DNA from: a bacterium
GTDB lineage: Bacteria; Patescibacteriota; Minisyncoccia; Phycocordibacterales; Phycocordibacteraceae
NCBI GenBank assembly: GCA_037200965.1
Contig: JBBCGK010000001.1
Location: 433,992-497,991 of the forward strand
DNA length: 64,000 nucleotides
Reading direction: 5' to 3'
The position numbers and the translations under genes were made by a program. Positions 38,595-57,677 of the stretch are shown here, one piece after another. The notes under the pieces were generated by a model, which was given only the letters and a program-made list of their open reading frames with translations, did not search any database and had not been told where the DNA came from. The stretch's first letter is position 1. Every line of letters begins with the position of its first letter.

Positions 38595-38603
38595 TTAAAA
38601 GCC

Positions 38604-38912
38604 GTGACTGATTTTCATCGAAAGCACGGCTACGACGTGGGGACCGGGAACATGGCGGTCATGTCGCTCAGAATTGGACTACTCATAGAAGAACTGGGTG
38701 AACTCCACGCCGTGGTTTCAAAGGGTGTTGGCGACATTTCAGAGGAACACGCAGACCTCTTGTATCTACTTCTTGGAAACTGCGTCACGCTTGGTATTGA
38801 TATAGAAACTGCTTTCTTTGCAAAACATGCCATTAACATGCGGAGGGAAGCCAAGGTAGTGAGGGGGAACCGCCGTGTATCGGATTGGTCCCATGAAAAA
38901 TCTCAGGAATGA
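38604..38912 (+). CDS. MazG-like all-alpha nucleoside triphosphate pyrophosphohydrolase (probably 5'-truncated at R1)
   Basis: LLIEELGELHAVV and EEHADLLYLLLGNCVTLGIDIE are the paired acidic helices of MazG/HisE-type NTP-PPases. The frame is open back through R1, and the only start available is a GTG 9 nt after the repeat. Confidence 0.7.
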   Translation: MTDFHRKHGYDVGTGNMAVMSLRIGLLIEELGELHAVVSKGVGDISEEHADLLYLLLGNCVTLGIDIETAFFAKHAINMRREAKVVRGNRRVSDWSHEKSQE

Positions 38913-39940
38913 AAGCTACAGTCATCATCGGTGCGCAGTATGGCAGCGAAGGAAAAGGTAAGATTGCAGCTTATCTTTCAGATGAGTTCGCTCGTGCAGT
39001 TCGAACTGGCGGGCCAAACTCGGGGCATACCGTCGAGCGCAATGGCACGTTCTATCAAGTTCGAGCGGTCCCTAGTGCCTTCGTGAACCAACAATGTCGC
39101 CTCGCGATTGGTGCCGGGGCCATAATAAACACTGCCGTACTATTAGGAGAATTAACGGCATGTGGTATTGTCGAGGGGCGTTTGATAGTTGACCCTCAGG
39201 CTGTCATAATTGATGAAGAATATCAAAATTCGGAACTAGATTTAATCAGTTCGATTTCGTCCACCGGACAAGGCGTTGGTGCAGCAATCGCAGCTAAGGT
39301 CTTACGTCGGAAAGTAACTCTCGCAAGAGACGTGCCCGAGTTGCGGCCACTGCTTGCCGATGTTGCTGGCACGATCAATTCCGAACTCCAACAAGGCCTA
39401 GCTGTAATGATTGAGGGGTCGCAAGGATTTTTCTTGAGTTTGCATCATGGTTACTATCCGTTTGTAACAGGCAGGGAAACGACCGCAAGTTCATTTTGCG
39501 CCGAAGTAGGAATCGGTCCCAAAGATGTGGGTCAAGTGATTGGAGTTCTCCGCACCCACCCGATTAGAGTTGGCGGCCCTTCGGGACCTCTTCAAGACGA
39601 AATCGATTGGCAGACCGTCACCGCCGAGTCGGGCTACCCAACACCGCTGTTAGAGATAACTACCGTTACCAAACGAATTCGACGCGTCGGGAGGTTCTCA
39701 ATGGCCGAAGCTAAACGATCTTTGATGATCAATTCGGCGACCCAAATTGCTTTAAACTTCGTCGACTACTTGGACCATGCAAACTTTGGACTTAGAAGCT
39801 ACACCGCACTGACTGCTTCAACAAAAAAATTCATCGACGCACTAGAGACACAAACGGGAGTTCCCGTTTCGCTGGTGGGCACGGGGCCCCGTAACAGCGA
39901 TATGATAGACTTACGACGCGAAAAGAACCTCCCCCATTAG
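38909..39940 (+). CDS. Short adenylosuccinate-synthetase-family enzyme (PurA/PurZ-like)
   Basis: P-loop GAQYGSEGKGKI (PurA has GDEGKGK), GPNSGHTV, STGQGVGAA, IEGSQGFFLSLHHGYYPFVT, TTVTKRIRRVG and GTGPRNSD all parallel PurA motifs. At 343 aa it is like the archaeal/phage short forms. Its start overlaps the MazG-like stop (ATGA). Confidence 0.8.
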   Translation: MKATVIIGAQYGSEGKGKIAAYLSDEFARAVRTGGPNSGHTVERNGTFYQVRAVPSAFVNQQCRLAIGAGAIINTAVLLGELTACGIVEGRLIVDPQAVIIDEEYQNSELDLISSISSTGQGVGAAIAAKVLRRKVTLARDVPELRPLLADVAGTINSELQQGLAVMIEGSQGFFLSLHHGYYPFVTGRETTASSFCAEVGIGPKDVGQVIGVLRTHPIRVGGPSGPLQDEIDWQTVTAESGYPTPLLEITTVTKRIRRVGRFSMAEAKRSLMINSATQIALNFVDYLDHANFGLRSYTALTASTKKFIDALETQTGVPVSLVGTGPRNSDMIDLRREKNLPH

Positions 39941-39948
39941 ATACCAGC

Positions 39949-40701
39949 ATGAAAAACCAATACTTTGGCGACTTGAGCGACTATAAGAAGTACGGTTTGC
40001 TGCGCACACTTTCGATTGAGGGTGAGTGCTCGCTCACTGTGTGTTGGATGCTGACGCGAGATGATCAAAGTACCGACGGGCGGCATACAACTTATTTGGC
40101 GGACGTAAGAGAATGGCGCAACCATGAGCCGTTGGTATTTGATCTACTCGCGGACGCAGTCTTCAAAAATTCCCGTAATCTCGAAATAGTTGAAAAGTCC
40201 GGACTAATACCGAACTCAAACTACTTTCGTGAGGAAATCGGCGATGCTCCCTCCCAACGGGAAGCTTTTTTTGCCCGATTGGCAGATGAAGCCCGCAATT
40301 CTGATATTGTGTTCTTGGACCCCGACAACGGCCTTGAAGTGAAGTCAGTCCCCTATGGCTCCAAGGGAGCACATAAGTACATTTATCGGTCTGAAATCGA
40401 AAAGTTATCTCGGAATGGACTTTCAATCTTGCTGTATCAACATTTTGGTCGGAAAGAACGGTCTGAGTTTATCCGAGCTATTGCATTGAAACTCATCGAT
40501 TGGCTGAATGTGGAGGAAGTATTTTCACTTCGGACGACGCATACCGTATTTTTTCTTGTGCCGAAAGCTGCCCACAGGTCGCGAATAGATCGATCCCTCC
40601 AGGCAGTAAATAGACAATGGGGAGATAAGATCTTTATCGAGATACACTCTAAGGAGTCTGTATCAACGGTTACAACGAAAAATCAGTTAGACCTACTCTA
40701 A
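39949..40701 (+). CDS. Hypothetical protein
   Basis: 250-aa ORF with N-terminal FGDLSDYKKYGLLR and central FLDPDNGLE. I do not recognise the family. Confidence 0.6.
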   Translation: MKNQYFGDLSDYKKYGLLRTLSIEGECSLTVCWMLTRDDQSTDGRHTTYLADVREWRNHEPLVFDLLADAVFKNSRNLEIVEKSGLIPNSNYFREEIGDAPSQREAFFARLADEARNSDIVFLDPDNGLEVKSVPYGSKGAHKYIYRSEIEKLSRNGLSILLYQHFGRKERSEFIRAIALKLIDWLNVEEVFSLRTTHTVFFLVPKAAHRSRIDRSLQAVNRQWGDKIFIEIHSKESVSTVTTKNQLDLL

Positions 40702-40714
40702 GTAAGTGAGCAAC

Positions 40715-40774
40715 ATGGATATTGGAAAGGAGCCTGACTTCGCCTCGGATGCCTACTTTGATAATCCGCAACAA
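40715..40774 (+). pseudogene. 5' fragment (20 codons) of an unknown gene, cut by R2
   Basis: ATG at 40715 opens MDIGKEPDFASDAYFDNPQQ, which runs straight into the repeat. Confidence 0.35.
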
Positions 40775-40810
40775 GTTGCACAACCTCCTTTTTACGAACG
40801 ATCCTGCAGG
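40775..40810 (+). repeat. Array repeat R2
   Basis: Exact 36-mer. Confidence 0.98.
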
Positions 40811-40812
40811 AC

Positions 40813-41427
40813 GATATCCACAAATCACTGCTGCGCAGCGCGGGCCTCGCGCATCTCTCGGCGGATGAGATTGGGGACTTGAGGGACTTGGCAGCGCATG
40901 AGCTACGGAATGAGACCGCGGACCGCGGTGGTCTCATGGCGGGATTGCGACTGCGCCTGCAACAATGCGACACACGGCTATCACGCCTTACAGACGCGCT
41001 CCTCGACCACCTCATCGAAAAGCAGGAATACGAAGCCAAGAAGGCCGCGCTCCTGGGCGAGCGGCGCGAACTGCTAGACAAACTGGAAAGCCCGGAGGCT
41101 TCGCGTCAACCCGCCGACGGCGTGCTGCAAGCATTGGAACTGCCAGATGTCGTGGAAACACGCTACGAAATGGCTTTGCCGGACCAACGGCGCCGCATTG
41201 CGTCTGCAATCGCTTGGAACCTAACTGGTAGCGGAAAAGAGGCCGTACCTGAGCTGAAATCTCCGTACCGGGAGATCGTACAGTGGCGTCTTTCCAATCC
41301 GGTGCGCCGTAACGGGGAGCGATCGGAACCTGACATAAAGCTGCTATACGAAGCGCTCAAAGAAGTCTGCCGGCGAGAAGACAAGCCGCCGCAACGTCCC
41401 CAACGTCCTGATGTCTCCGGCATATAA
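40813..41427 (+). pseudogene. Large serine recombinase, C-terminal fragment (5'-truncated at R2)
   Basis: The frame is open from the first base after R2. The coiled-coil segment LRLRLQQCDTRLSRLTDALLDHLIEKQEYEAKKAALLGERRELLDKLE is typical of the C-terminal domain of large serine recombinases. No catalytic N-terminal resolvase domain is present. Confidence 0.65.
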
Positions 41428-41494
41428 GGCGACATACTTTTTCGAGAATTGTCGCGCCTTATGCCGCGTGAATGTCAGGCAGATGCTGTTCTGC

Positions 41495-42724
41495 ATGGAT
41501 GCGAGCATCAGCTACTTCGCCCGCACCAACTTCCGCAACCGAAACCAGCTCTTCGGTGTGAGGCAAGCCGACCGTCTTTCGCACCTGTACGTCATCGGCA
41601 AGACTGGCACGGGCAAGTCCACCCTCCTTGAAACCCTCGCCCGGCAAGACCTTCGGGCCGGGCGCGGCTTCGCCCTCATAGACCCGCACGGCGATCTCGT
41701 GGAACGGATCGCGAGGGACGCGCCGGAAGCCGTCTATCTGAACGCCCCCGATCCCTCCCAGCCCTTCGGCTATAATCCGCTCCGGAGGGTCAGGGACGAC
41801 AAGATACCGCTTGCCGTCTCGGGCTTCCTCGAAACCCTCAAGAAGCTCTGGCCCGACGCGTGGGGCGTGCGCATGGAGCACGTCCTTAGGAATACGCTGT
41901 ATGCGCTATTCGAGCAGGAGGATGCGCGGCTTCCCGATATCCTCCGCCTCTATGCCGACGAGACATACCGGAAGGCGCTCGCCAAGGGGATTAGGAACGA
42001 TACCGTCCGCCGCTTCTGGCTCCATGAGTTCGAGCACTTCCACTTTCGCCAGAGGGCGGACGCCGTGGCTCCGATACAAAACAAGATCGGGGCGCTCCTT
42101 GCCGACCCCACGCTCTATCGCATCCTCGTCGAGCCAAAGGAGGATATCCGCTTCCGTGCCCTCATGGACGGCGGCGGGGTTCTTCTGGTCAATCTCTCGA
42201 AGGGCAAACTTGGCGAGGACAGCTCGCACATCCTCGGCGCGCTCATCGTCTCGACCCTGGGCCTTGCTGCCTTTAGTCGGGCCGACAGTCCCCCAACCTC
42301 CCGCCGCCCTTTCTTCGTCTATATCGACGAATTCCAGTCCTTCACGACCCTTATGCTCGCCGACATGATGTCGGAGCTGCGGAAGTACGGCGTGGGCCTT
42401 ACCTTGGCGCACCAATATATGCACCAGCTTGAACCCGAGATACGGCATGCGGTTCTGGGGAACGCTGGGACGCTCATATCATTCCGTGTTGGCCCCGAGG
42501 ATGCGTCAATCCTGGCGAAGGAGTTTCAGCCGACGTTTGACACACACGATCTCCTGAACCTGCCTAACCACCATATCTATCTGAAGCTGATGATTGATGG
42601 GGTGCCGGGCGGGGCGTTTAGTGCAAATACAGTCGATCATTCGACGCGGGGAGAGACAAAGCTCGCACCGCTACGAAGGACTTCAGACTTGAATGCGGGC
42701 GAAAGCGCGTCTGACTATGTGTGA
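41495..42724 (+). CDS. P-loop ATPase, type IV secretion coupling-protein-like (TraD/VirD4-type DNA-binding domain)
   Basis: Walker A VIGKTGTGKST, Walker B FFVYIDEFQSF and LAHQYMHQL. The start is taken at MDASISYF, because the track ORF start at 41411 overlaps the recombinase fragment. Confidence 0.7.
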   Translation: MDASISYFARTNFRNRNQLFGVRQADRLSHLYVIGKTGTGKSTLLETLARQDLRAGRGFALIDPHGDLVERIARDAPEAVYLNAPDPSQPFGYNPLRRVRDDKIPLAVSGFLETLKKLWPDAWGVRMEHVLRNTLYALFEQEDARLPDILRLYADETYRKALAKGIRNDTVRRFWLHEFEHFHFRQRADAVAPIQNKIGALLADPTLYRILVEPKEDIRFRALMDGGGVLLVNLSKGKLGEDSSHILGALIVSTLGLAAFSRADSPPTSRRPFFVYIDEFQSFTTLMLADMMSELRKYGVGLTLAHQYMHQLEPEIRHAVLGNAGTLISFRVGPEDASILAKEFQPTFDTHDLLNLPNHHIYLKLMIDGVPGGAFSANTVDHSTRGETKLAPLRRTSDLNAGESASDYV

Positions 42725-42859
42725 GCGGGATCACGTTTTTTTGCAGATGGCACGCCCGCGTGGGCTGTTTTGGTAATTGCCATAGCGTCTTGGCAACAAC
42801 TGGGCGTCAGTACCTGGCTTCCCTCACAGGTTGAATATATTACAGTATAGCTCAACCAT

Positions 42860-43864
42860 ATGTTGAGTCGCCGCATGCCCGGTATTACCGAATTACTTTT
42901 GAAAATCGCGCCCAAGATCGGCGCAAAAGTGCTGATCGAGCCTGAGTGGGGCTACGTCGGGCAAATCGCCTTCCGAAGCGGTCGCAAGCGGTACTTCCGG
43001 TTCTCCAGCGTTGACGTGAATACGCTGGGCGCATCGGAAGTCGCGAAGGACAAAGATTTTGCGAACTTCTTCATGAAGCACATGGGTTATCCCATCGTGA
43101 AAGGAAAAACGTTCTTCCGGGACGACTGGGCAGAGACAATCCGCTCCAAGCGAAAGATCACGGCCGCCTATCGATACGCGCGACGGCTGGGATTTCCGGT
43201 GATTGTGAAGCCTAACAGCGGCAGTCAGGGGAAAGCAGTATGCTTGGCTCGCACGAAGCGTCAATTCTATCGCGGAATGCGGGCGACCTTTGAGGTGGAC
43301 AAAGTCGCGCTTGTCCAAATACCTGTTTCAGGAAAAGACTACCGCATCGTGGTCTTGGACCGAGAAATCATTTCGGCGTACTACAGGGTTCCGCTAAGCG
43401 TCGTCGGCAATGGAAAAGCTTCCGTAGCGGCGTTGCTCAAGTCGAAGCAGAAAGAGTTTCGGCGCGCCGGGCGCGACACGGCGATCAGGGCCGACGATCC
43501 GCGCATAGCGGAAAAGCTCGAGCATCAGGGACTGAGCTTCGCTTCCGTTCTCCGAAAGGATCAAAAGGTTTTTCTTTTGGATAACGCCAACCTTTCGACG
43601 GGCGGCGAATCGGAAGACGTAACGGAAAGCGTGCACAAGGAGTTCAGGAAAATCGCGGTGTCGCTTACGAGGGATATGGGACTGCGCCTGTGCGGCGTCG
43701 ATCTCATGATAGACGGGGATATCTCGGAGCCGCCCAAAACGTATTGGGTGCTTGAAGTCAATTCGGCCCCGGGGCTCGATCATTATGCGAAAAGCGGCGC
43801 GGCACAAAACAAAATCGTCGAAAAGATGTATACGACGGTGCTTAAGAGCTTGGATCGTGACTAG
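42860..43864 (+). CDS. ATP-grasp enzyme (cyanophycin-synthetase / RimK-like ligase domain)
   Basis: FPVIVKPNSGSQGKAV, DYRIVVLD, ANLSTGGESEDVTESVH and VLEVNSAPGL match ATP-grasp ligase motifs. Confidence 0.7.
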   Translation: MLSRRMPGITELLLKIAPKIGAKVLIEPEWGYVGQIAFRSGRKRYFRFSSVDVNTLGASEVAKDKDFANFFMKHMGYPIVKGKTFFRDDWAETIRSKRKITAAYRYARRLGFPVIVKPNSGSQGKAVCLARTKRQFYRGMRATFEVDKVALVQIPVSGKDYRIVVLDREIISAYYRVPLSVVGNGKASVAALLKSKQKEFRRAGRDTAIRADDPRIAEKLEHQGLSFASVLRKDQKVFLLDNANLSTGGESEDVTESVHKEFRKIAVSLTRDMGLRLCGVDLMIDGDISEPPKTYWVLEVNSAPGLDHYAKSGAAQNKIVEKMYTTVLKSLDRD

Positions 43865-43956
43865 CTCGTGTATAGTCCATACGACCGATCTTCCTGACAC
43901 CAATAGGCATCGGCCAAATCGTGATTGCTGACCAACGTTTTGCGCCGAGCGACCGC

Positions 43957-44262
43957 CTAGTCGGGATCGTAGGGATTATTGGTATCCGTGCCATTGCGCG
44001 AGGAACCAGACGGCGAACTATACGGATCGACGCGCTTGTGACCTTGCTCGCCCGTATAGGGGTTCACGTTTGGATACGTCGAGTAATTGTTATAGGGATT
44101 GCTGTCAGGCGATGAGCGATGGTGTGGCGGAACATACGTGCCGTCCTTCCGCACATAGCCTCTGACACTGACGTCCTTCGCTGCCGCCTCAGCGCCAGTG
44201 GCCAGCAGGGTCGTGAAGACCAAAAGGGCGGCAAAAATCTTGCGCATATTAACTCCGATCAA
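43957..44262 (-). CDS. Small secreted Pro/Asn/Tyr-rich protein
   Basis: Signal peptide MRKIFAALLVFTTLLATGAEA followed by a low-complexity mature part. Confidence 0.5.
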   Translation of the reverse strand: MIGVNMRKIFAALLVFTTLLATGAEAAAKDVSVRGYVRKDGTYVPPHHRSSPDSNPYNNYSTYPNVNPYTGEQGHKRVDPYSSPSGSSRNGTDTNNPYDPD

Positions 44263-44357
44263 AAATGCGGCTCGATGCTAGTTTAGTGGCTGGCGCAGGG
44301 CCAGAGGAATAATCTTCGCAAGCGTGCGTCAGGCCACGCCCTACGGTAACGCGTCGA

Positions 44358-45341
44358 TCAGTTCGCCTCGTCGAAAATCCCATTCAGGATCGCCCCAAGC
44401 CGCACCCCTGCCGCCTGCAAGCGCTCTTCCACGATGGCGGCGCGGTCTTCCTTGTAGTTGCCGTCGGGCGCGAAGACGCGAACGGCGCCACCGGTATACG
44501 TCTCGCTGTCTTCGGAATAGCGGCAGGTGGTGCCGGAGAGCGTACAGTATCCGGTGTCGGGCGCGCGGGAGACGGTGAGCGATTCGTTGGCCCATACCAT
44601 CGGATCGAGCGACGCCTTCCACGTTGCCCGCTGCTCGTCCGTGATTTCCTTTTGAAGAACATTGCCAAACGCCTCGCGCCCAGGGCCTGCTGGCTTCGTC
44701 TGCGCGATGTGGAGATCACGCATGACTTGTTCGGGAATGCAGGTGTCCCACACGGTATGGAGCGCGGTTTTGCCGTCATAGGCGCAGCCCGAGACGCCCT
44801 TCACGCCGACGCTGTTGCCGCCGCGATCATCGGCATACGAAATGTGGAGCGGCTGGTGTATGTCGCCGAGCCAGTGCCCGAGGAATTTGAGGGCCGTGCG
44901 CTTCTTGTCGGTTGAGGCATTCGGGTCTTTGAGGATGGCGATATCGGCGGGGATGGCCGTGAAAAGGCACGTCGCCGCATTCACGCACTTGGCCTCGGGG
45001 AAGCTCGTCCAATCGCGCGGCATATTGATGAAGTGCTCCGCCCTCCGGCTGCTTTGCACATCGCCCTTCTCGTCCGGCCAGGTGCAGGCCCCGTGGAAGG
45101 TTCTCGGTATCTCCTTGCCGTCAGCGTCCTTAAGCGGGGTTTCTGAGCGGATAAGCTTGTTGACCGCCTTGCGGGCCGTCGGCGTGAGCTCCTTGTATGC
45201 GATCTCGCAGACCGCCTCGTGGCCGGTGCCGCCGAAGGCGAGGGCACCGCTCGTTGTGAGACAAAGACTGACGAAGCCACCAGCTCCAAACAGCGCAAGA
45301 AGAACCCGCCGACGTCCACCCATGTACCCGCTCCCCCTCAC
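44358..45341 (-). CDS. Secreted S1/P1-family zinc nuclease
   Basis: Signal-like N-terminus, FGGTGHEAVCEIA (WG..GH equivalent), HFINMP, and LKFLGHWLGDIHQPLH (the H..GD.HQPLH zinc motif). Confidence 0.8.
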   Translation of the reverse strand: MRGSGYMGGRRRVLLALFGAGGFVSLCLTTSGALAFGGTGHEAVCEIAYKELTPTARKAVNKLIRSETPLKDADGKEIPRTFHGACTWPDEKGDVQSSRRAEHFINMPRDWTSFPEAKCVNAATCLFTAIPADIAILKDPNASTDKKRTALKFLGHWLGDIHQPLHISYADDRGGNSVGVKGVSGCAYDGKTALHTVWDTCIPEQVMRDLHIAQTKPAGPGREAFGNVLQKEITDEQRATWKASLDPMVWANESLTVSRAPDTGYCTLSGTTCRYSEDSETYTGGAVRVFAPDGNYKEDRAAIVEERLQAAGVRLGAILNGIFDEAN

Positions 45342-45453
45342 TATTCGTGCCCAGGATGCGAGGACTCGCCCTAGCCGAAGAACGGATGATGCCCGGATGA
45401 TTTCACCCGTCCAAGAGGAATGTGCGCCTTAGACTTCGTATCGGGCCGGGCCT

Positions 45454-46359
45454 ATGCTGCTTCTATTGGTGGGGTGTTTCTCAGGGGGTATTGGCATGAC
45501 TAGCGGCACGCGAGTTTTTCCGACGCGTTCGTATCGGGCATCATTTCCCATTCATGCGCTTCTTGCCGTCTTCGCGCTTCTCGTCGCGGGTGCGTATGGC
45601 CCGGCCGGTTCGGCCTTGGCCGCGACCAGCGCGGCGTCCTTCTGCCTTGACGCATGCCCCGAGGGCGCGCCGGCAAAGAACAAGACGGTCGTGCACCATG
45701 TCTATGCGCTCAGCTCGAACCCCGACACGAAATTCGCCGATTGGGTCGCGTACAAGATCTCCAAAGCGACCATCGGGTCGAACTGTTCGCGCAAGTGGGC
45801 GAAGGACCCGGACCTAGCGGCCGGCACCACGCTCAAGCCCGCCGATTACAAGGACATCAGTGCGGCGCTCCAGTCCGACCGGGGCCATCAAGCGCCCTTG
45901 GCAAGCCTATGCGGCTCGAAGTTCAATGCCGAGGCGAACTATCTCTCGAACATCACCCCACAAAAGTCCGACCTCAATCAGGGCGCATGGGTGCGGCTCG
46001 AAACCGCCGAACGCAAGCTCATTACGGGCGGCACCGCGAAGACCGTGTATACCGTCACCGGGACGCTCTACGAAAAGAAGATGCCGCCGCTTCCCAAGGC
46101 GAGCGTCAAGCACAAAGTCCCTTCGGGCTATTGGAAGATCGTCGCCGTCGAGACGGACGACGGGATCGACGCCGTGGCGTTCGTCATGCCGCAGGATACA
46201 CCCAAAGCCGCCGATTATTGCGAAACGCGCACCACCATCGGCGACGTTGAGACGCGCTCGGGCCTCAAGTTCTTCCTCGATCTCAACGAGACCGACCGCA
46301 CGCAGCTTGAGGAGAGCGAGGCGAAGACCGGCCTCTATGAGGATTTGGGCTGCGAGTAG
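45454..46359 (+). CDS. Secreted DNA/RNA non-specific endonuclease (NucA/Serratia nuclease family)
   Basis: Signal/TM segment, the catalytic SDRGHQAPLASL (DRGH motif) and downstream NITPQKSDLNQGAW. Confidence 0.8.
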   Translation: MLLLLVGCFSGGIGMTSGTRVFPTRSYRASFPIHALLAVFALLVAGAYGPAGSALAATSAASFCLDACPEGAPAKNKTVVHHVYALSSNPDTKFADWVAYKISKATIGSNCSRKWAKDPDLAAGTTLKPADYKDISAALQSDRGHQAPLASLCGSKFNAEANYLSNITPQKSDLNQGAWVRLETAERKLITGGTAKTVYTVTGTLYEKKMPPLPKASVKHKVPSGYWKIVAVETDDGIDAVAFVMPQDTPKAADYCETRTTIGDVETRSGLKFFLDLNETDRTQLEESEAKTGLYEDLGCE

Positions 46360-46381
46360 CACGAGCGCGGGAAGATACGGC

Positions 46382-46669
46382 ATGCGCAAGGCATTCATAC
46401 TGACGCTGGTGGCGTTCTCCGCACTTGCGGCAACCCCACTCATCGCGCGGACCACGGATGCGGAAGTCCGGGGACAAATGATCCGCGAGTCCATCGCAAG
46501 CTATCCCGGCAACTGCCCGTGTCCGTACAGCACGATGCGAAACGGGCGCTCCTGCGGCGGGCGAAGCGCGTACAGTCGGCCCGGCGGATATGCTCCGCTG
46601 TGCTACCCGTCTGACGTTTCGGACGATATGGTGCGCGGCTATCGAAGCACGCATGGGCTCGGGAACTGA
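46382..46669 (+). CDS. Small secreted Cys-rich protein
   Basis: MRKAFILTLVAFSALAATPLIA signal followed by a Cys-rich mature region. It uses an internal start within the longer, implausible track ORF 45860-46669. Confidence 0.5.
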   Translation: MRKAFILTLVAFSALAATPLIARTTDAEVRGQMIRESIASYPGNCPCPYSTMRNGRSCGGRSAYSRPGGYAPLCYPSDVSDDMVRGYRSTHGLGN

Positions 46670-47339: not shown

Positions 47340-47349
47340 TCTCAGCCTG

Positions 47350-49601: not shown

Positions 49602-49603
49602 GA

Positions 49604-49840
49604 GTGCTCGACATGGCCGGAACGCTCGATTGCTTTGTCCGCCTTGTTGAACTCGACACCTGCGTGCGTGAGTTGGCACAGCGCAAGCGCGCGAATAATA
49701 GGATCAGCATATCCGATCTTGATGACGTTCTCCTGGCGCTTGCTGAAGCTCGGGAAACGATCCAGGACGACGCGTATGACGAGATGGCGAGGCGGCGAGC
49801 GATAACAACGGCGGACATAATGCAGTTCGCAAAAGATTAG
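49604..49840 (+). CDS. Hypothetical small protein
   Basis: 78-aa ORF starting 2 nt after the GNAT stop. No motif recognised. Confidence 0.35.
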   Translation: MLDMAGTLDCFVRLVELDTCVRELAQRKRANNRISISDLDDVLLALAEARETIQDDAYDEMARRRAITTADIMQFAKD

Positions 49841-50107
49841 CGAAAGCGCGCGGCTCTATTCAAAACGCGGCCTACGACAAGTTCGCAACTATTCGTCCGA
49901 CAACACTCGCCCGATAACGGATCATTCGGCAACCAGAGGATAATGAGTATATCGCGGGAGCGAAGCATAGGAGACGATGCAGTGCATAGTCCGTCATAAA
50001 TTCAACGGCGGCATCCTGATGGTAGCTGTATAACAGCGTGGTGCCGGAACTTCCCCTTGTAGCCAATACCGGGCTTCGTTACAAAGCTTCAAGGGGAGGC
50101 TATATGC

Positions 50108-51743
50108 ATGCTTAATCACACCTTTGGAGTGATCTCGCTGGGTCGTTTCCTCACTGCTATACGTCCTGCGCGTTATGCGGTCCGCTCTGCCAATCGAACA
50201 CGCTTCGGCCAAGGGCTGGTCTCGGTCCGCACCCTAGTCGTCGCTGCGTGCGTTGCAATGAGTTGGCTAGCCGCATTGCCGCAAGCCGCCATCGCGAGCA
50301 GCGTCTTGATGAGCGTGCCAGGCGAAAGCGACGTAAACTCGGCGGGTGCCTTCACATATTCACTTCCTATTGCAGTTCCGCCCGGGACTGCCCGCATCGT
50401 ACCGCGACTGTCGCTTGATTATTCCAGTCAAAGCGGCAATGGCCTCCAAGGCCTCGGCTGGTCGCTTTCCGGATTGCCGGCAATAGGAAGATGCGCGCGC
50501 ACGGTGGCGCAAGACGGCGTGCATGGCAGTGTCAATTACGACGGCAGCGACAAATTCTGCTTGGAAGGCCAGCGCCTAGTCGCCCTAAGCGGCGTCTATG
50601 GCGCGAACAATACGGAATATCGTACCGAAATAGAGAGTTTCACCAAAATTATTTCATACGGAACGGCGGGTAACGGGCCAGCCTCGTTCAAAGCGTGGAC
50701 CAAGTCCGGTCAAATCCTGGAATTCGGAAACACGGCGGATTCCCGTATCGAAGCGGTCGGCAAGACAACGGTGCGCGCGTGGGCCGTCAATAAGGTTTCC
50801 GATGCCAAAGGAAACTACGTCACGGTCGAATACACCGACGACCAAACTAACGGAGAGGCGTATCCGGTTCGGATTGATTATACCGGCAATCCCAACGCAA
50901 CGCCGGTGGTTATGCCGTACAATTCCGTGCAGTTCACATACACAACGCGCGCAGATATCACGATTGCCTATCAGGCCGGTTCGCAGCAGAAGATCACAAA
51001 ACTTCTCACCAATATTAAGACTTATCAAGCCGCGAATTTGGTTTCCGACTATCGCCTTGCCTATCAAGCCGGCTCATCGCTCGCACATTCGCGTCTAACG
51101 TCCATCACGTTATGTGATGGGTCGGGTACGCCGGTATGCCTTGCCCCCACGACCTTTGGCTGGCAGGGTGGCAGCGGTAGCCTGCCGACAATGACCGGGA
51201 CCGCATCCACTATCATTCCGACGCAAAGCGGTGATTTCAACGTTGACGGATTAACAGACCCCTTTGTCAAAGCCCCGTATTTTGGAACTCAGAGCGGAAC
51301 GTTCGTCGCGAGCGGCATGACTATAAGCTATACCGACCCCATATCGGGATTGCCGTGGTCGGGTCTAACGGCTTTCCCCAACACAATGGTCGGGTTTGTA
51401 TTGGGTGATACCGACGGAGACGGGTATAGCGACGTCACCGCGATGCGGGGTATCGCACATGGCGCTTATGCCAGGTTGGTGGTTACGCGCAACGACCAGC
51501 TCGGAAATCTTGGTCAGATCGGCCTGATCGATCCGCTGCATGCTGGCGCCATATTCAGCGGCGACTTCAATGGAGACGCGCGCACGGACGTTTTCGTGAC
51601 GGGTGTAGCTTCTTATAACAGTACGACGTATCTGAGCCTGGGGACCGGATCGTTCACCGCCATCAACATGAGTTCGGTATATGAACCCATCACGACCGCC
51701 GATTTTGATGGTGACGGATGCACCGATTTCTTGGGATCGACTA
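50108..51743 (+). pseudogene. SpvB/TcdB-type toxin-complex protein, N-terminal part with FG-GAP/VCBS repeats (3'-truncated at R3)
   Basis: AGAFTYSLPIAVPPGTARIVPRLSLDYSSQSGNGLQGLGWSLSGLPAIGRC is the SpvB N-terminal signature. Later GDFNVDGLTD, GDTDGDGYSD, GDFNGDARTD and ADFDGDGCTDF are FG-GAP/VCBS repeats. The protein sense ends at the repeat, and the track ORF beyond 51743 is read-through into unrelated DNA. Confidence 0.75.
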
Positions 51744-51779
51744 GTTGCACAACCTCCTTTTTACGAACGATCCTGCAGG
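51744..51779 (+). repeat. Array repeat R3
   Basis: Exact 36-mer. Confidence 0.98.
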
Positions 51780-51793
51780 TTTCCGTTAATCTT

Positions 51794-53134
51794 CTAAGTC
51801 TCTTGTTGAGACGCAACACAGCCCCACGCCGCTTTTACCGAGTCATAGATAAAGCCTACCGTCAGAACCTTGGATATAACCGTCGTGGTTGGCAACGCCG
51901 TGCCTTCTGCCACGAACGACGCCCCCCAGGTAATCGCCCGGGCCGTACCGTCGTCTTTGATCCTGAAGATGAGCGTCTGGAAGTTCGTGGGTGTACCGGA
52001 GAGATTTGTCGTCATCGACGTGATCGCGGTCGCAAGAGCAGTAATCGTCACGGCGTCGCACCCATCGCTATTCACTGTAGGGGTTGCCGAAGAAACAATC
52101 GTCGTTATGCGTGGAGTATTTCTCTTATTTGCAAGAGTCTGTGTACCATTGTTAGTCACGACACTGTCAGCGTTTGTGCCTGCAACCGAGATTCTCAAAT
52201 CTCCTGTTCCAACGGTAAGCACTCCTGAGGTGTGCGTTGCAACCCAGTTACCGTTACTAATGTTCCAGGTAAAACCAGTAGCACTAAAGAGATCGGCCCA
52301 TCCAAGCGCGGTCGTCCCAAGAGCGGCAATATCATTCGTGACCGGGGAAAGAGCGGAGGAGGTAAGTTGTATCGTTCCTGTTCCGTTGATAGCCAGACCA
52401 AGCGTATTGGTTGTAGGAAGGTAGAGGCGATTACCGGTAGCAGTTGAAGAGGTAGGAGCAAAGCCAGCCGCAGTTGCCAGCGATGCCAACGTCAAAGCTC
52501 CGGCGTCGGTCAAGGTTGCATTGGTGGATGTTGCTTGTGCGCCGCGCGAAGTACCATCGGACCGAAGTATAGATTCATCTGTGGCAAAAGTGGCGGCAGC
52601 GGTGACTACATTACTCGGTATATCGCTTGTAAGAGCGACGGTACCCGTGGACGCCGGAAGGGTAATGGTGTTAGTTCCAGCGATTGCCGTAGGGACGAGG
52701 GCGATGGTACCGGAAGTTGAACCCGAGAAGGTTACACCCTGGGTACCGGAAATGATGCCAGTGGTGTCAGCAATAAGCACTGCCGAGTTCTGGATCAGCT
52801 TACCAGTGGTAGTGTCGAAGCGGGCCACGGCGTTATCAGTTGCTGAAGCCGGGCCTACAACATAGGTAGCAAGGGAAGCAGTCGTAGGAATAACATAGCC
52901 GCTTTGGAGCGCTATAGCGATCGTTCCGGAAGTAGTGATCGGTACGCCGGATACCGTAAGTCCTGTCGGTACCGTAGCGTCAACGGATGTAACCGTACCT
53001 CCTCCTCCGGGGAGGTCTATAAGAAGCCTGTGCGTCGTCGGGTCTGCATATAGACGCACAGGCGTCTTGCCGTCAGCGCTTGAAGCTGCTATCAGCGTTG
53101 GAACATCGTTCTGGTCTCGGTAAGCATCAGCCAT
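51794..53134 (-). CDS. Phage tail-fibre-like protein
   Basis: 446 aa, Thr/Gly/Ala/Ser-rich beta-repeat sequence with AVARFDTTTGKLIQNSAVLIAD and similar segments typical of phage fibres. Its stop is 14 nt from R3. Confidence 0.6.
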   Translation of the reverse strand: MADAYRDQNDVPTLIAASSADGKTPVRLYADPTTHRLLIDLPGGGGTVTSVDATVPTGLTVSGVPITTSGTIAIALQSGYVIPTTASLATYVVGPASATDNAVARFDTTTGKLIQNSAVLIADTTGIISGTQGVTFSGSTSGTIALVPTAIAGTNTITLPASTGTVALTSDIPSNVVTAAATFATDESILRSDGTSRGAQATSTNATLTDAGALTLASLATAAGFAPTSSTATGNRLYLPTTNTLGLAINGTGTIQLTSSALSPVTNDIAALGTTALGWADLFSATGFTWNISNGNWVATHTSGVLTVGTGDLRISVAGTNADSVVTNNGTQTLANKRNTPRITTIVSSATPTVNSDGCDAVTITALATAITSMTTNLSGTPTNFQTLIFRIKDDGTARAITWGASFVAEGTALPTTTVISKVLTVGFIYDSVKAAWGCVASQQET

Positions 53135-53136
53135 AA

Positions 53137-53327
53137 TCAGGTACTTTGTACGAGTAATTCCCCGGCACTATTGGCGTAGAGCACCACAGGCGTCTTGCCG
53201 TCAGCGCTTGAGACAGCCATGAGTGCAGGAACAAAGTTTGCGTCCCGCAGATCGTCTACCGGCCCAAAGTCCGACCCGGTAGTGTCGTCGTCCGCCATAA
53301 GCGCATGTGTTGAAGGGTCAGCAACGA
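53137..53327 (-). pseudogene. 3' fragment of a second tail-fibre-related gene (5'-truncated at R4)
   Basis: ...ADPSTHALMADDD...LMAVSSADGKTPVVLYANSAGELLV parallels the N-terminus of the downstream fibre protein (LIAASSADGKTPVRLYADPTTHRLL). The frame is open into R4, and the apparent GTG start lies inside the repeat. Confidence 0.55.
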
Positions 53328-53363
53328 GTTGCACAACCTCCTTTTTACGAACGATCCTGCAGG
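53328..53363 (+). repeat. Array repeat R4
   Basis: Exact 36-mer. Confidence 0.98.
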
Positions 53364-53460
53364 AGTATGAGTACTGATACCGTCCAATCTGCCATTGAAT
53401 ATGCGCGACACTCGCCGTCGTGACGACGTTGAGTTAAGTCAATGGCGATTTATGTTACTG

Positions 53461-53982
53461 TCACCGGACCGGCACGAACCCTTCGGGAAGAAACTGCGTC
53501 GGGTCCTTCCACGGTTCAATAGCAACTGCTTTGGGGTATTTGCTTATCATGTAAGCATCGGTGCAATACACCAAACTTTCGGGATCATCGTCCGAAGGCT
53601 CAAGGCCTGAAAATTCAACCATCACAGATTTCTGGTTGGTAATTTTTCCAAAGGTGTCAATGAACCGCTTGATTTTGTCAAACTCACGCACAAAATCGTC
53701 GGGCTCAAATAGATAGGAATACACTACTACTGTATTCTCGCCGACGATCCGTTCGGAACCGTCCTCATTTTTCACGCGGAAACGCCCAGCGGCGAGCGGC
53801 AATTGGGTTACACCGCCATTGATCCGCACCATAATTTCCATGGCGCTATCGACCCATTTGTCAAAATTTTCAACAGGCTTCTGATCGCGATCTTGGTTAG
53901 GCAAATAAACTGCAAACCGTTGTACCGATTCAGATGTATCGGCACCTAGCGCGGTCTTGAGGTCAAAATCTACGAGCGCCAT
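53461..53982 (-). CDS. Hypothetical protein
   Basis: 173-aa ORF with normal composition. No motif recognised. Confidence 0.5.
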   Translation of the reverse strand: MALVDFDLKTALGADTSESVQRFAVYLPNQDRDQKPVENFDKWVDSAMEIMVRINGGVTQLPLAAGRFRVKNEDGSERIVGENTVVVYSYLFEPDDFVREFDKIKRFIDTFGKITNQKSVMVEFSGLEPSDDDPESLVYCTDAYMISKYPKAVAIEPWKDPTQFLPEGFVPVR

Positions 53983-54068
53983 GATCGCTTCCTATTAGCC
54001 ATCAATGAAAAGGCCCCATAGCCGGGGCCTTAAAGTAGGCAAAATGCCAAATTGCAACGCTGATGCCG

Positions 54069-54738
54069 CTACCGCGGTCTTGAAGGTCTCCGAATTCCGA
54101 GCACCGTTTTAGGGTCCCGCTTGATCTTTAGAAACCGTCCAAATCCCGAACGAGCGTCTTCAGGTTTCTCCGCTTGTTGGGAAGCTGAACGAATCGCTGT
54201 CACTATCTCGTTAGCAGCTTCTGATATGGGCGGCAAATTTTGCCGGTTATAGTCGCCTGGCGGGATTCCCGCGTGCTTCTTTTTCATATGATTTTCTCCT
54301 GTTTCTTCACAGGGTTGCGACCCATCGGTCTCAGCCCCGTGTTGATCGGGAGAAAGCCCTTCAAGAATCGGGCCGCGTACGTCGGTTTCCCAGGTTAAGG
54401 CTTCGACGCGAATATCCTGGCCACGGTCCGTCCTTATGCTTTCGCGATGGGGACCATACCCACATAGTACCACAGCGGCATGCGTAGTCGCGCCCGAAAT
54501 CTCGTGGACTATATCCGCAGCAGCGCCAATACCAGCGCCCGTTACTATCAAGTCATAGACCATCAAGATGCGATCACCGGAAAGCGGTTTGTCTGCCGTT
54601 ATTGCTACGCCCTTCGCCCAACGCGTCTCGCGATAGATGCAGGCGGGCAATCCGGTTTCGGCGACGAGGGACGAGAGCATCGAAATCGCGCCGACCGGCC
54701 CCATCTCTTTTTCGATAAAGCACAATCGCGTAATGCCG
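54069..54738 (-). pseudogene. Phosphoribosyltransferase-domain protein (probably 5'-truncated at R5)
   Basis: GDRILMVYDLIVTGAGIGAAA is the PRPP-binding loop of type I PRTases. The frame is open back into R5, with only a TTG start at 54725. The usual 40 or so N-terminal residues of the PRT fold appear to be missing. Confidence 0.55.
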
Positions 54739-54774
54739 GTTGCACAACCTCCTTTTTACGAACGATCCTGCAGG
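54739..54774 (+). repeat. Array repeat R5
   Basis: Exact 36-mer. Confidence 0.98.
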
Positions 54775-55372
54775 AAACCATGAGAGAACCCGAGTTGATC
54801 TCGGTGGCCACGATCTTCAAAGGCGACAACTCGTTAAATTCCTCATAGTTCAGGTCAGCGAACCGAATTCGATCAGGCACTCCATCGTGATCACGACCAT
54901 TTGCGGCATATAATTCCCGCATACGTTCTCGAAGAACTGTGTTGATGAATTCACGAATGGGCGTTGTGGTGAAAAAGCCTAAGTGCCGCCATATGCGCAG
55001 CATTCCAAACGTAACTAGGGGAGCTGTTAAAAAAGACAATAATACACCCCCCAACGCCGTAGCGGACAATGCCCATCGAAGTCCCTGGCGGAGGCGAACA
55101 AATCTACGCCAATCATCAGCCCCCAATAACGTTACGGGGGTCAAGTTATGTAGGCTGAGAATATTTTGATCCCTAATGTCGGGATTCATCAAAGTCGAAG
55201 CACTGTATCCCGCCGCGACTAGCGTTGCCACGATCGCGCCAGCTGACGCCCCGGCTACACCTACGAAGGCGAGCCCATTCTTCGCGGCACCCTCCAAAGC
55301 ACCAATATGCGCTATGCCCTTAGCACCGCCACCTTCGAATATGCCAAAGGCTGGCCTCTTAGCGTCCATCAC
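54775..55372 (-). pseudogene. Patatin-like phospholipase, N-terminal part (3'-truncated at R5)
   Basis: FEGGGAKGIAHIGAL (oxyanion GGGxxG) and GASAGAIVA (GxSxG nucleophile). The catalytic Asp (DGG/DGA) region is absent because the sequence runs into R5. The track ORF 54605-55372 continues as unrelated read-through. Confidence 0.75.
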
Positions 55373-55505
55373 TGTATGTATCCTTTCGCAAATCAGGTCG
55401 GGGCCTGCACAAACGACAGAACATCGGACAGGCTGGTGAAATAATGAGATACCAGCCTTCGCACATTGCTGTTCCGCATACAGATACAGCAGTTGCTAGT
55501 TCAAA

Positions 55506-57077
55506 TCAGTTCAGTTGCTCCCGCACCAACGAAAGATCGTTGAACAACGTTCTCGTAAGATTCGGGATTTTTTCCAGTTTGTCTGCTTGTATTAACTTCG
55601 CCATAAAACGAATGCTTCCCTCCACTCGCTCGTCATAGAATATTTCGTGCAGAAACTTCCGCCCCTGCCGCAAATCCGTAGCATCAAACAGAAATTCCAG
55701 CTTGGCTTCGTTATCGACCATAGCAACTGCACGCCAAAAGAATCGAGGAAAATTCGCTGTCAGGAGGCTCTTGCGGACTATCTTGCTTAGGGAGGAGCGC
55801 GAAACAATCTCGCGTTTCAGATCGCTTGGGCCATTCAAAAATATGTCCCACTCGAAACGAGCCATATCACTATTGCTCGATAATTTTTTAAGCATCTCTA
55901 AAATATGATCAAATGCCAGGATAGCATCGTACACGTCGTCAAATCGGACGCGAATTTTGCTATAGAGCGGCACGAGACACAAATCCGCGCGAGCACGGGT
56001 TATCTTCGTCCCACGCTTTCGAGACCAAGTTGTCGTTATGATGTTAGATGGGCCGCTCAGCTTGATCTCAGAGTATGGGCCGATGCCGTCGTCATGCGCA
56101 TACAGTTTGGTTATGCGCGTCGCCCGTAGAAGAAAACCCGTGCGAGGTTCGGGTACTATGGGACCAGTTGTGGGCCCAAGGCCGCTGAGTGCGACCGCGT
56201 GAAATGCTCGTTTGCTTTTCTTGGAGCGTTCTAAGTTGAAGTCAAAACTCAGAATGATCGGAATATTGCCCCTCAAGAATGCATTTGCTGCGGCTTGGAT
56301 ATTGGCTCGCTCGGGCGTCATAAACAAATCCGCTTCGAGACCGACATTGCGCAAAACGCCAGCCATTTGATCGATATCCAAGCCGTCGTTCGGGAGAGCT
56401 AGGCCAGCTGTTGGCAGCGAAGCAAACGCTCGTTTGGTTATTTCAATAGGTGATAAGATTGGATTGTCATACAAATTCGCCGTGCCATGCAGTGTAGTCC
56501 ACAGAGCGCTGGTAGCGCATGCGCCAACCTCTCGGTCTTGTTCTTGAAAAGGCAGCGCACGTACAGGCAGATCTATGCCGAAAAGATTTGGTACATATCC
56601 GCGCTCAGTGAGGAAGCGACTCGATGGATTACTCCCAACCGGCGCCAAACACGTTCGCCCAATGATGGTTTCGGGAAGAGGTTTGACAACTACAAAGCCG
56701 TGATATCCCAAGACGTCGAACCTACACTCACCGCGGCCCGAAACGAAAAGCGCTTCGACCATATCTTTATCGAACGGTTGCCGAAAAAAGTGAATTCGTG
56801 AACATTCTTTCGGATAGTTCGCGTGGCATCTCGCGTAGTATCCTGTATGATCTTCGGCGAAATGCTTGTCGATGTAGTCGCGCTCAAATACAAGAGTTTC
56901 GATTTTCGCGGCTTCACAGTAACGAGCTAGAAAAATGACCTGGGGCTTTTGTGCAATTTGCTCCAGTCTAGGTTTAAATGCTCCGGCAACAAAAAGCGCT
57001 ACCAAGTTCTCTCGATTGTACTTGAGTACTTGGTAGCGCTCGCCCATGTGATCTAACTGAATATCCGCGTACGTCAC
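55506..57077 (-). CDS. Hypothetical protein with a putative papain-like cysteine peptidase core
   Basis: 523 aa. QEQDREVGACATSALWTTL (Gln...Cys), RAFHAVALSGL (His) and YAHDDGIG (Asp) occur in the order expected for a papain-fold / C39-like peptidase. The assignment is by motif pattern only. Confidence 0.5.
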   Translation of the reverse strand: MTYADIQLDHMGERYQVLKYNRENLVALFVAGAFKPRLEQIAQKPQVIFLARYCEAAKIETLVFERDYIDKHFAEDHTGYYARCHANYPKECSRIHFFRQPFDKDMVEALFVSGRGECRFDVLGYHGFVVVKPLPETIIGRTCLAPVGSNPSSRFLTERGYVPNLFGIDLPVRALPFQEQDREVGACATSALWTTLHGTANLYDNPILSPIEITKRAFASLPTAGLALPNDGLDIDQMAGVLRNVGLEADLFMTPERANIQAAANAFLRGNIPIILSFDFNLERSKKSKRAFHAVALSGLGPTTGPIVPEPRTGFLLRATRITKLYAHDDGIGPYSEIKLSGPSNIITTTWSRKRGTKITRARADLCLVPLYSKIRVRFDDVYDAILAFDHILEMLKKLSSNSDMARFEWDIFLNGPSDLKREIVSRSSLSKIVRKSLLTANFPRFFWRAVAMVDNEAKLEFLFDATDLRQGRKFLHEIFYDERVEGSIRFMAKLIQADKLEKIPNLTRTLFNDLSLVREQLN

Positions 57078-57538
57078 ACTGTGAACGGGATACGCCGACG
57101 GTCAGGAGAAATCTGGTTGGCTTGTTCTCGACTTTCAATTGCCTTGAGCATTGGCGAAAGACGCTTAGCGACTTGCGCAGTAAGATCAGTTCTGGAGGCC
57201 GTCGCCTTGGACTTGGGCCGTGCAGAACTCTTCGTCTTTTTGTGACGCATAGCGCAACCTCCAATTTCGGTGAGCAGGATGTTGCCCTCAGTTCCAGCCC
57301 GGCGGGTATAAACTCCAACACGGGGATCAAAATCAAGCTCATGGACTTGACTTCCTGGAACGGGGCCGCCTAGGGCTCCCCTGTAACGAATCAGCCCTGT
57401 TCTTAACGTACCACGAGCGCCTTCGTATCCCCAATATTTTGTATGTGGATAATCCACCAACACAAGTTCTTTGAATGGTGAGGCTGGCCGTTGCCTTTCC
57501 TCAGTGGCGTCGCCGTCCGTTGACCCAATCGCCTGCAT
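57074..57538 (-). CDS. Hypothetical protein (first gene of the S5 operon)
   Basis: 154-aa ORF overlapping the next gene's start by 4 nt. It has a basic C-terminal half and no recognised motif. Confidence 0.45.
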   Translation of the reverse strand: MQAIGSTDGDATEERQRPASPFKELVLVDYPHTKYWGYEGARGTLRTGLIRYRGALGGPVPGSQVHELDFDPRVGVYTRRAGTEGNILLTEIGGCAMRHKKTKSSARPKSKATASRTDLTAQVAKRLSPMLKAIESREQANQISPDRRRIPFTV

Positions 57539-57677
57539 AACAATTTAATGCCTTCCTTCTGGCAGCAGACCACTAGGAGCGGCAGACGGCCGTTCATTAT
57601 CAGCGTGGATCATTGGCTGGACCGAGCCCCAATCGGTGACTGATTCGTACGGCTAAAGACCGCTCGGGTCAACTAAG

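Follow-up and report, generated by a model that had tools for sequence, protein, structure and literature searches.

The 64-kb stretch of DNA analysed here (the window) holds, between the host genes tatD and metG, a stand-alone cas1–cas2 gene pair and six identical copies of a 36-nt repeat, GTTGCACAACCTCCTTTTTACGAACGATCCTGCAGG, all in direct orientation. The five inserts between these repeats (S1–S5) measure 1375–10,933 bp where spacers of ~35 bp would be expected, and none of them is spacer-sized (about 25–70 bp). With a probability that we put at roughly 0.72, this locus is a CRISPR-derived array (from clustered and regularly interspaced short palindromic repeats), in which the “spacers” are kilobase fragments of foreign double-stranded DNA put in by Cas1–Cas2. 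The interval 38595–57677 corresponds exactly to the DNA from the first base past repeat 1 to the last base ahead of repeat 6 (Table 1), and no further copy of the repeat was found on either strand of the window with up to eight mismatches allowed. The array is flanked by cas2–cas1–metG on one side and by tatD–rpsF–ssb on the other, with no tyrosine recombinase of the IntI type. At least six of the ten insert borders cut an open reading frame (ORF), and the insert genes lie in both orientations. The host is a CPR (candidate phyla radiation) bacterium, Paceibacteria/Kaiserbacteria-like, with a genome of ~0.96 Mb.

Origin of the inserts

An exact-protein look-up of the synthetase encoded in S1 led to a 4,003,360-bp contig (JBBCBH010010880.1) of assembly GCA_037975565.1, where positions 9687–11866 of the excerpt L047 are identical to S1 over 2180 of 2180 nucleotides. 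S1 comprises the C-terminal, PRA-PH/MazG-like part of a truncated gene, the synthetase, a 250-aa ORF of no assigned family and the start (60 nt) of a P450 gene. In the 4-Mb genome the left border falls 576 nt into a gene for a 297-aa kinase/PRA-PH protein and the right border falls at the corresponding point, 60 nt into the P450 gene. The ORFs there are continuous across both cuts, which makes the 4-Mb genome the donor and the CPR array the recipient. Neither donor flank (…gacctt/TTAAAAG… on the left and …GCAACAA/ttgcttt… on the right, with the border at the slash) contains repeat-like sequence, which contradicts homologous or site-specific recombination through the repeat.

The donor element encodes a serine recombinase (516 aa), a phage-type integrase, a TrwB-type coupling protein (695 aa), Replic_Relax, AlpA and the P450. 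The donor site thus lies within an integrated element of the integrative/conjugative type in a co-resident 4-Mb bacterium. This bacterium is tentatively placed in the Alphaproteobacteria, since Rhizomicrobium supplies the only named close relatives (70–72% identity) of one chromosomal-looking glycosyltransferase on the donor contig. Both donor borders (L047 9677–9696 and 11858–11875) fall inside AT-rich palindromes, with the left cut 2 nt off the centre of CTTTTAAAAG and the right cut at the centre of CAATTG. With a single donor these palindromes may be due to chance; alternatively, they may reflect the nuclease by which the fragment was cut.

The S1 synthetase is a PurA/PurZ-like protein of 343 aa, in which the P-loop variant GSEGKG has Ser replacing the catalytic Asp. 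It matches the PHROG named for PurZ with E = 6e-72, and its best solved relatives are short archaeal PurA proteins followed by phage PurZ. A reading of S1 as a phage Z-base (PurZ/MazZ) module was dropped, because the donor context is of the integrative/conjugative type and not phage, and because the best solved relatives are archaeal PurA. Within the donor element (L047 9111–11793; window 38604–40701), the synthetase adjoins the kinase/PRA-PH (MazG-like) fusion and the P450, and the three genes possibly form a nucleotide-modification module.

S2 begins with the 3′ part of a serine-recombinase gene and ends with the 5′ part of an SpvB/FG-GAP gene; between the two lie, in order, genes for a TrwB/HerA-type ATPase, ATP-grasp, S1/P1 nuclease, NS endonuclease, XRE, LysR and GNAT proteins. 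The first ORF is open at the border and is 63% identical to residues ~313–514 of the serine recombinase of the S1 donor element, so that the catalytic N-terminal 312 residues are missing; the 437-aa ATPase is 75% identical to the product of a neighbouring gene of the same element. At the other end, the SpvB/FG-GAP toxin-type ORF enters repeat 3 after 545 codons, and a 2089-aa Rhizobium homologue aligns with it by its N-terminal quarter only. As S2 is cut within genes at both ends, it is a 10.9-kb fragment of an element related to, and distinct from, the S1 donor. Its tetranucleotide distance is 0.124 to the 4-Mb contig and 0.171 to the CPR host, and each of three sub-pieces is likewise nearer the 4-Mb contig; 3-kb control pieces of either genome were always nearer their own reference, though each was part of that reference. 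Searched against the plasmid collection, the LysR and toxin-type genes matched Alphaproteobacteria best, with an identity of only about 30%, and PADLOC matched the ATPase to mad8/HerA. The gene content that an earlier note had read from the letters of this DNA (LysR, an XRE-type helix-turn-helix protein, GNAT, secreted nucleases, a coupling-protein-like ATPase and the SpvB/FG-GAP protein) was borne out by family matches, and the S1/P1 nuclease and NS endonuclease both have signal-peptide-like N-termini. In the related Taylorbacteria array L025, two separate inserts (13945–14895 and 16040–16591) are homologous to the ATP-grasp protein (26%) and to the C-terminal part of the ATPase (44%), whose genes adjoin in S2. 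Elements of this kind seem to have been sampled repeatedly in distant CPR lineages.

S3 is phage-related. Its 446-aa ORF (51794–53134, minus strand) belongs to no Pfam family and is accompanied by a short ORF open at the right boundary. Relatives of the 446-aa protein occur on 379 IMG/VR contigs, at no more than 60% identity over the N-terminal 153 residues. A homologue sits amid weak tail and tail-fibre-assembly matches, and the C-terminal 125 aa resemble a segment of a phage tape-measure protein and mycobacteriophage proteins. The phage connection of S3 proposed earlier therefore stands, while the “fibre proteins” then named come down to a single 446-aa ORF for which a fibre function is unproven. 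S3 also contains a 74-nt direct repeat (53046–53119 and 53174–53247; 74% identity), of which one copy codes for residues ~6–30 of the 446-aa protein and the other lies in the short upstream ORF cut by the border. Such a pair hints at paralogous genes arranged in tandem in the phage from which S3 came.

S4 encodes a 173-aa ORF and a 222-aa ORF with its 5′ end cut by the boundary; neither protein has a match in Pfam, PHROG or PADLOC or a relative in IMG/VR. S5 consists of a patatin-like gene open at the left boundary and probably 3′-truncated, a 523-aa ORF and a 154-aa ORF. Members of the 523-aa family are at most 49% identical, and those that bear names come from Phycisphaerae, Armatimonadota and Pseudomonas, none from CPR. 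One homologue adjoins TrwB and Replic_Relax genes in another contig, an element of the same class as the S1 donor. S1, S2 and probably S5 thus derive from one class of conjugative/integrative element. PADLOC gave no defence-system assignment for S1, S3, S4 or S5, only a weak phospholipase match for the patatin fragment. Exact-protein look-ups for donors of S2, S3, S4 and S5 returned only copies of the same CPR strain, and megablast of the whole array against phage and plasmid collections gave no nucleotide match.

The composition of each insert was compared with the protein-coding flanks of the window, with the rRNA stretches left out of this host reference. The reference has a GC content of 0.587–0.589, the immediate flanks of the array 0.579 and 0.588, and host genes a third-position GC (GC3) of 0.60–0.82. 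S1 and S5 lie under every same-sized host segment sampled (GC3 0.47–0.50 and 0.47–0.52), and both are tetranucleotide outliers (0/300 each). S4 is near the bottom of the host range of 0.507–0.634 (GC3 0.52–0.54; tetranucleotide p = 0.013), and S3 is low yet inside its host range (GC3 0.51) while being a tetranucleotide outlier (0/300). S2 falls within the host range of 0.561–0.615 (GC3 0.62–0.79), and by tetranucleotide distance it does not differ significantly (p about 0.08). S1, S4 and S5 are more alike mutually than to S2 or S3 and are too short to be told apart by composition.

These data settle several proposals of the earlier note. S1, S4 and S5 are indeed AT-richer than the host (0.587), whereas the impression that S2 is more GC-rich than its flanks was mistaken, its 0.596 lying within the host range. 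Composition, GC3 included, taken insert by insert against the flanks, singles out S1, S3, S4 and S5 and leaves S2 indistinguishable from the host by GC. The idea of different sources holds as far as separate acquisition events are concerned, and need not mean donors of different kinds, since S1, S2 and probably S5 share one donor-element class. Independently acquired foreign DNA, as opposed to a native operon, is supported by the full-length donor match of S1, the cut genes of S2, the viral relatives of S3 and the lack of CPR-named relatives of the 523-aa protein of S5. The same evidence, which is better than that of composition, supports the idea that the array records encounters at gene resolution.

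Table 1 Positions of the array, its adaptation genes and the bordering host genes in the window
Feature	Position	Strand	Details
host gene tatD	37727–38542	-	left border of module
repeat 1	38559–38594	-	copy most distant from cas2; 16 nt from tatD start codon
insert S1	38595–40774	.	2180 bp, GC 0.485
repeat 2	40775–40810	-	identical copy
insert S2	40811–51743	.	10,933 bp, GC 0.596
repeat 3	51744–51779	-	identical copy; unitig L051 = window 51752–53355
insert S3	51780–53327	.	1548 bp, GC 0.541
repeat 4	53328–53363	-	identical copy; covered by unitigs L051 and L055
insert S4	53364–54738	.	1375 bp, GC 0.516
repeat 5	54739–54774	-	identical copy; 28 nt of repeat either side of S4 in unitig L055
insert S5	54775–57677	.	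2903 bp, GC 0.506
repeat 6	57678–57713	-	cas2-proximal copy; cas-orientation sequence CCTGCAGGATCGTTCGTAAAAAGGAGGTTGTGCAAC
leader position	57714–57745	-	32 nt between cas2 stop codon and repeat 6
cas2-like gene	57746–58042	-	98 aa; overlaps cas1 end
cas1	58039–59094	-	351 aa; Pfam Cas_Cas1 1e-63; TIGR00287 221 bits vs cut-off 71.7
host gene metG	59150–60580	-	right border of module

Adaptation genes, repeat hairpin and host genome

Residues E181, H241, D253 and E256 of Cas1 are invariant in 28 sequences aligned with solved Cas1 structures. The catalytic set is complete, and the enzyme is predicted on this basis to be catalytically intact. No subtype-specific model matched this Cas1. The Cas2-like ORF is kept beside cas1 in about 28 loci, and Cas2 accounts for five of the six PDB matches listed for its family profile (E = 0.06–0.55); it has no NCBIfam match. 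A GGCT motif and an A-rich stretch just ahead of the first repeat are common to most relatives. In the 5 kb upstream of cas1, a search of 24 relatives' loci found no conserved gene partner.

The repeat RNA folds into a hairpin of near full length in the cas sense only (e.g., 57678–57713, minus), with an energy of -10.4 kcal/mol (z = -2.5). Among 70 variants of the repeat, pairing extends to 88% of cells, with frequent G-U pairs. It reaches 95% in the outer helix (UGCAYA with UUGUGCA), and some compensatory changes occur in the inner one. Covariation is 0.157 against 0.126 in a shuffled control (0/500 shuffles), a modest excess as the search pattern fixed many columns. The hairpin suggests that the array may be transcribed and that the structure of the RNA matters. 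Because the repeat keeps a hairpin in the cas sense, a transcribed record of long, repeat-flanked RNAs is favoured. A promoter and terminator scan of the array gave no more sites than shuffled sequence and none inside the repeats. We also considered the AAGGAGG of the repeat as a ribosome-binding site for the insert ORFs and rejected it, because no start codon stands at a suitable distance and the inserts are of mixed orientation.

The array is also present on the 960,259-bp contig JBBCBH010010897.1 of GCA_037975565.1, in which the window wraps the contig ends. The Cas1 relatives that bear names are all Patescibacteria or Paceibacterota, and the closest genomic relative (85% identity) is a metagenome-assembled genome (MAG) of Candidatus Kaiserbacteria. 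The 23S gene (15891–20235, minus strand) extends ~1.4 kb beyond the 2925-position Rfam model and contains a group I intron (16313–16529) and a LAGLIDADG ORF (17187–17726). The 16S gene is in two pieces (1–837 and 1571–2093) around a LAGLIDADG ORF at 740–1483, and the 5S gene is at 14762–14869. The 16S and 23S genes are unlinked, about 14 kb apart; introns or LAGLIDADG insertions in rRNA genes and unlinked 16S and 23S genes are typical CPR traits. Two low-GC stretches (1–2093 and 14762–20235) are not islands, being these rRNA genes with their introns and poor in ORFs. Elsewhere in the window, two adjacent minus-strand ORFs (24587–26221 and 26326–28302; 544 and 658 aa) each have a PG_binding_1 domain, and they have 76%-identical 89-nt segments in common along with GTGGTC-rich internal repeats. 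They are probably paralogous surface or cell-wall proteins.

Related arrays and rival explanations

A Cas1-profile scan of one genome per species gave 45 loci. Repeats at kilobase spacing are present in 15 of these and in 11 metagenome contigs, for at least 25 loci overall. In the CPR-type relatives (40–85% Cas1 identity), a homologous 37-nt repeat with the consensus CCTGCA-N8-TCG-N3-AAAGG-N4-TGTGCAAC stands 30–45 nt past cas2 and returns at intervals of kilobases. JGI metagenomes, searched with a degenerate repeat pattern, yielded 91 more stretches, 11 of them with at least two repeats, 423–3995 bp apart. Inserts measure 1332, 1379, 1340 and 2377 bp in the closest relative (L002), 1038–2873 bp in L025 and 1081–2518 bp in L030. 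The 52 distinct inserts across the clade span 140–10,933 bp (median about 1.5 kb) in arrays of one to eight inserts, and none is 25–60 bp long. Their termini are neither conserved nor inverted and show no common motif, only mild base biases. The 69 insert ORFs of relatives that match Pfam fall into 68 different families, and insert ORFs include methyltransferases, outer-membrane beta-barrels, DNA polymerase III delta′, an IS200 transposase, NDK, an integrase and a truncated cas1. So mixed a content points to capture of imported DNA of any kind. Ordinary arrays with a 72–76-bp period occur in archaeal and Bacteroidales relatives, whose Cas1 identity is about 30%, and in Methanospirillum stamsii they belong to a type III-A locus.

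The module’s genomic context differs among relatives. In MAGs labelled FCPU426 or “uncultured proteobacterium” (L017, L018, L020, L026, L027 at 9899–11402), a ~1.5-kb unit recurs at 97–100% identity within unrelated flanks. It consists of 100 nt of upstream sequence, cas1, cas2, the leader and the first repeat, and has a sharp left edge, TGTCCACGACGGGGACCC…. MAG MFD05512.bin.1.167 holds the unit at least three times at 99.7–99.9% identity with different flanks, the left edge lying about 100 nt upstream of cas1. In L030 (9966–11120), two repeats enclose a copy of the unit that has lost the first 111 codons of cas1 and whose end coincides with the leader–repeat junction. The cas1–cas2–leader–repeat module may itself move or be re-captured.

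This raises the alternative that the unit is a mobile or selfish element, casposon-like in spirit, and that the inserts reflect the element’s own history. The multi-copy unit with its sharp left edge in MFD05512.bin.1.167, the truncated copy held as an insert in L030 and the varying context among relatives all speak for it. The unit, however, lacks terminal inverted repeats and PolB, and shows no target-site duplication except the repeat. The window has one copy of the module, which is stable across two datasets. We consider this explanation unlikely; moreover, it is compatible with capture by Cas1–Cas2, as it alters who benefits and not how the inserts arrive.

The repeats could instead be recombination sites through which repeat-bearing circular elements or arrays enter, in the manner of Campbell-type integration, integrons or recombination between phage-borne arrays. 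Identical 36-nt direct repeats flank every insert as this would have it, and S1, S2 and S5 are related to integrative/conjugative elements that encode recombinases. The S1 donor, however, has no repeat at either border, and the inserts are gene-cutting fragments and not whole elements. The recombinase of S2 lacks its catalytic N-terminus, and no recombinase adjoins the array or is conserved in relatives. The insert ends share no motif, and searches of one genome per GTDB species, of IMG/VR (2.9 million viral contigs) and of JGI metagenomes found no exact copy of the repeat. Entry through the repeats is accordingly quite improbable.

An ordinary CRISPR array in which short spacers have been interrupted by mobile elements is a poor candidate. 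Insertion sequences and prophages do land in CRISPR arrays elsewhere, and one relative’s insert carries an IS200-type transposase. Neither S1–S5 nor the clade’s 52 distinct inserts, though, contain a normal-sized spacer or a spacer remnant, and what lies between the repeats are fragments of genes that have neither transposase nor inverted ends. Equally hard to sustain is the view that the inserts are native CPR genes, the repeats intergenic elements akin to repetitive extragenic palindromes and the composition ordinary gene-to-gene variation. The host-like GC and GC3 of S2 would fit, and nucleases are common in CPR genomes; the repeats, on the other hand, cut genes and occur only beside cas1–cas2 in the 64 kb, S1 is DNA of another organism, and four of the five inserts (S1, S3, S4 and S5) are compositional outliers.

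Independent sequence data bear on a chimera of assembly or binning joined via the repeat, or a misplaced S1. Unitig L001, from short reads, runs through metG–cas1–cas2 and ends inside repeat 6, and unitig L049 (run SRR10968228) joins 28 nt of repeat 1 to S1. Together, the short-read unitigs of SRR28211700 and SRR10968228 show the cas2–repeat 6, repeat 1–S1, repeat–S3–repeat and repeat–S4–repeat junctions. The S1 unitig of SRR28211700 ends exactly at both S1 borders, as is expected where reads come from both contexts. A MAG from 2020 (GCA_015655515.1) has cas1–cas2–S5–S4–S3–S2 on one contig and tatD–S1 on another, in the same order and at 99.96–99.98% identity. The assembly is metagenome-derived and S1 is common to another contig of GCA_037975565.1, but with the junctions in unitigs from two runs and in the 2020 short-read MAG, kilobase-spaced repeats across many studies and assemblers, and donor ORFs continuous over the S1 borders, a chimera is the least credible of the explanations. 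Real single-nucleotide differences from the 2020 MAG (window 38559–59094 against L052 and L057) number two each in S1 and cas1 and one each in S2 and S5, with none in the 13.5 kb of host flank compared. S1 in the window equals the donor sequence, and S1 of the 2020 MAG differs from the donor at two sites.

Proposed capture by Cas1–Cas2 and comparison with known systems

The array combines an intact Cas1, a divergent Cas2-like partner, identical repeats, sequence-independent insert ends and a donor free of any recombination site. Integration of the CRISPR type is the simplest route from a linear fragment to the order repeat–fragment–repeat. The fragments would come from invading or imported DNA such as conjugative elements and phage. 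The 3′-OH ends of a fragment would attack both ends of the cas2-proximal (leader-proximal) repeat in two transesterifications, and gap repair would then duplicate the repeat, as in ordinary spacer acquisition. No length ruler or trimming step would limit the fragment. The five inserts would represent five separate capture events, and a gain of usable genes would be an occasional by-product. CRISPR adaptation prefers invading DNA, and the mobile-element and phage bias of S1, S2, S3 and S5 fits this preference.

Several observations count against capture by Cas1–Cas2. That these proteins perform the insertion is something we infer from sequence. Known Cas1–Cas2 complexes measure prespacer length, and its bypass here is without explanation. 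The Cas2-like ORF is a weak match, scoring 18 bits with Pfam Cas2 under a cut-off of 23.8. The 32-nt leader of the window is very short and lacks the full GGCT motif, and that of the closest relative, L002, diverges too. The 64-kb window, to which this search was confined, contains no effector cas genes, Cas6, Cas10/Csm or CRISPR RNA-processing enzyme. The array is unchanged between the 2020 MAG and this genome, with no acquisition seen. S1, in the position most distant from cas2 and expected to be the oldest, has a perfect donor, whereas the cas2-proximal S5 has none on record. On a protospacer-adjacent motif nothing can be said, because only one donor is known.

A broader proposal is that an effector-less Cas1–Cas2 clade of CPR/Patescibacteria and a few uncultured lineages has lost the ruler and become a sequence-independent device for kilobase capture, a counterpart of the integron, with an archive of fragments from conjugative elements, phages and the genomes of host bacteria, possibly expressed as hairpin-flanked RNAs. 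We hold this tentatively, at somewhat less than even odds. A full-text literature search, of incomplete coverage, found no published description of kilobase inserts in Cas1–Cas2 arrays. CRISPR finders presume short spacers, so such loci are missed entirely. If capture by Cas1–Cas2 is correct, the integrase works without a ruler and links CRISPR adaptation mechanistically to casposons; such an integrase would be a possible starting point for tools that insert gene-sized DNA. The broader proposal would also give genes a way, not recognised before, to pass horizontally into the reduced genomes of episymbionts. The arrays would then be a sequence-level log of the organisms and mobile elements met by a CPR cell, and to our knowledge hardly any partners of CPR bacteria have been identified. 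Should the function be gene capture or a long-RNA memory, this would be a new category of system; the defining feature of short spacers has already failed here.

Among known systems, tandem genomic islands at an att site differ in that the S1 donor has neither att site nor repeat and the inserts are fragments and not whole elements. Recombination of CRISPR arrays with phages or plasmids that carry the repeat, as solitary repeat units or virus-borne mini-arrays, also can leave large foreign DNA between repeats. It needs, however, a repeat in the donor, and neither the S1 donor nor any of 2.9 million viral contigs has one. Integrons resemble the array in their gene-sized inserts between a recurring, hairpin-capable site near an integrase gene and in offering a route for acquiring foreign genes. 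Here, though, the integrase is Cas1 and not a tyrosine recombinase, the repeats are identical where attC sites vary, and the inserts are border-cut fragments in both orientations, one of them from a donor without the site, where integrons hold complete promoterless cassettes.

Canonical CRISPR adaptation, with its nearest relatives in the type III-A loci of Methanospirillum and Methanocalculus, shares with this array the Cas1 with its catalytic residues, foreign inserts and 36–37-nt repeats of the archaeal form CYTGCA...AAAGGA..TGCAAC. The adjacent, weakly matching Cas2-like gene and the putative short leader are possible further parallels. It differs in its inserts of about 36–40 bp, against 140–10,933 bp with whole and truncated genes here, and in the effector and Cas6 genes absent from the window and the subtype model that this Cas1 does not match. 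Casposons are alike in having a Cas1-family integrase, a kilobase insertion and a target duplication, and the module is multi-copy in some relatives. In contrast to casposons, the array has a Cas2-like gene and neither PolB nor terminal inverted repeats; the inserted DNA is heterogeneous foreign sequence, and the duplicated target is a 36–37-nt repeat of the CRISPR type.

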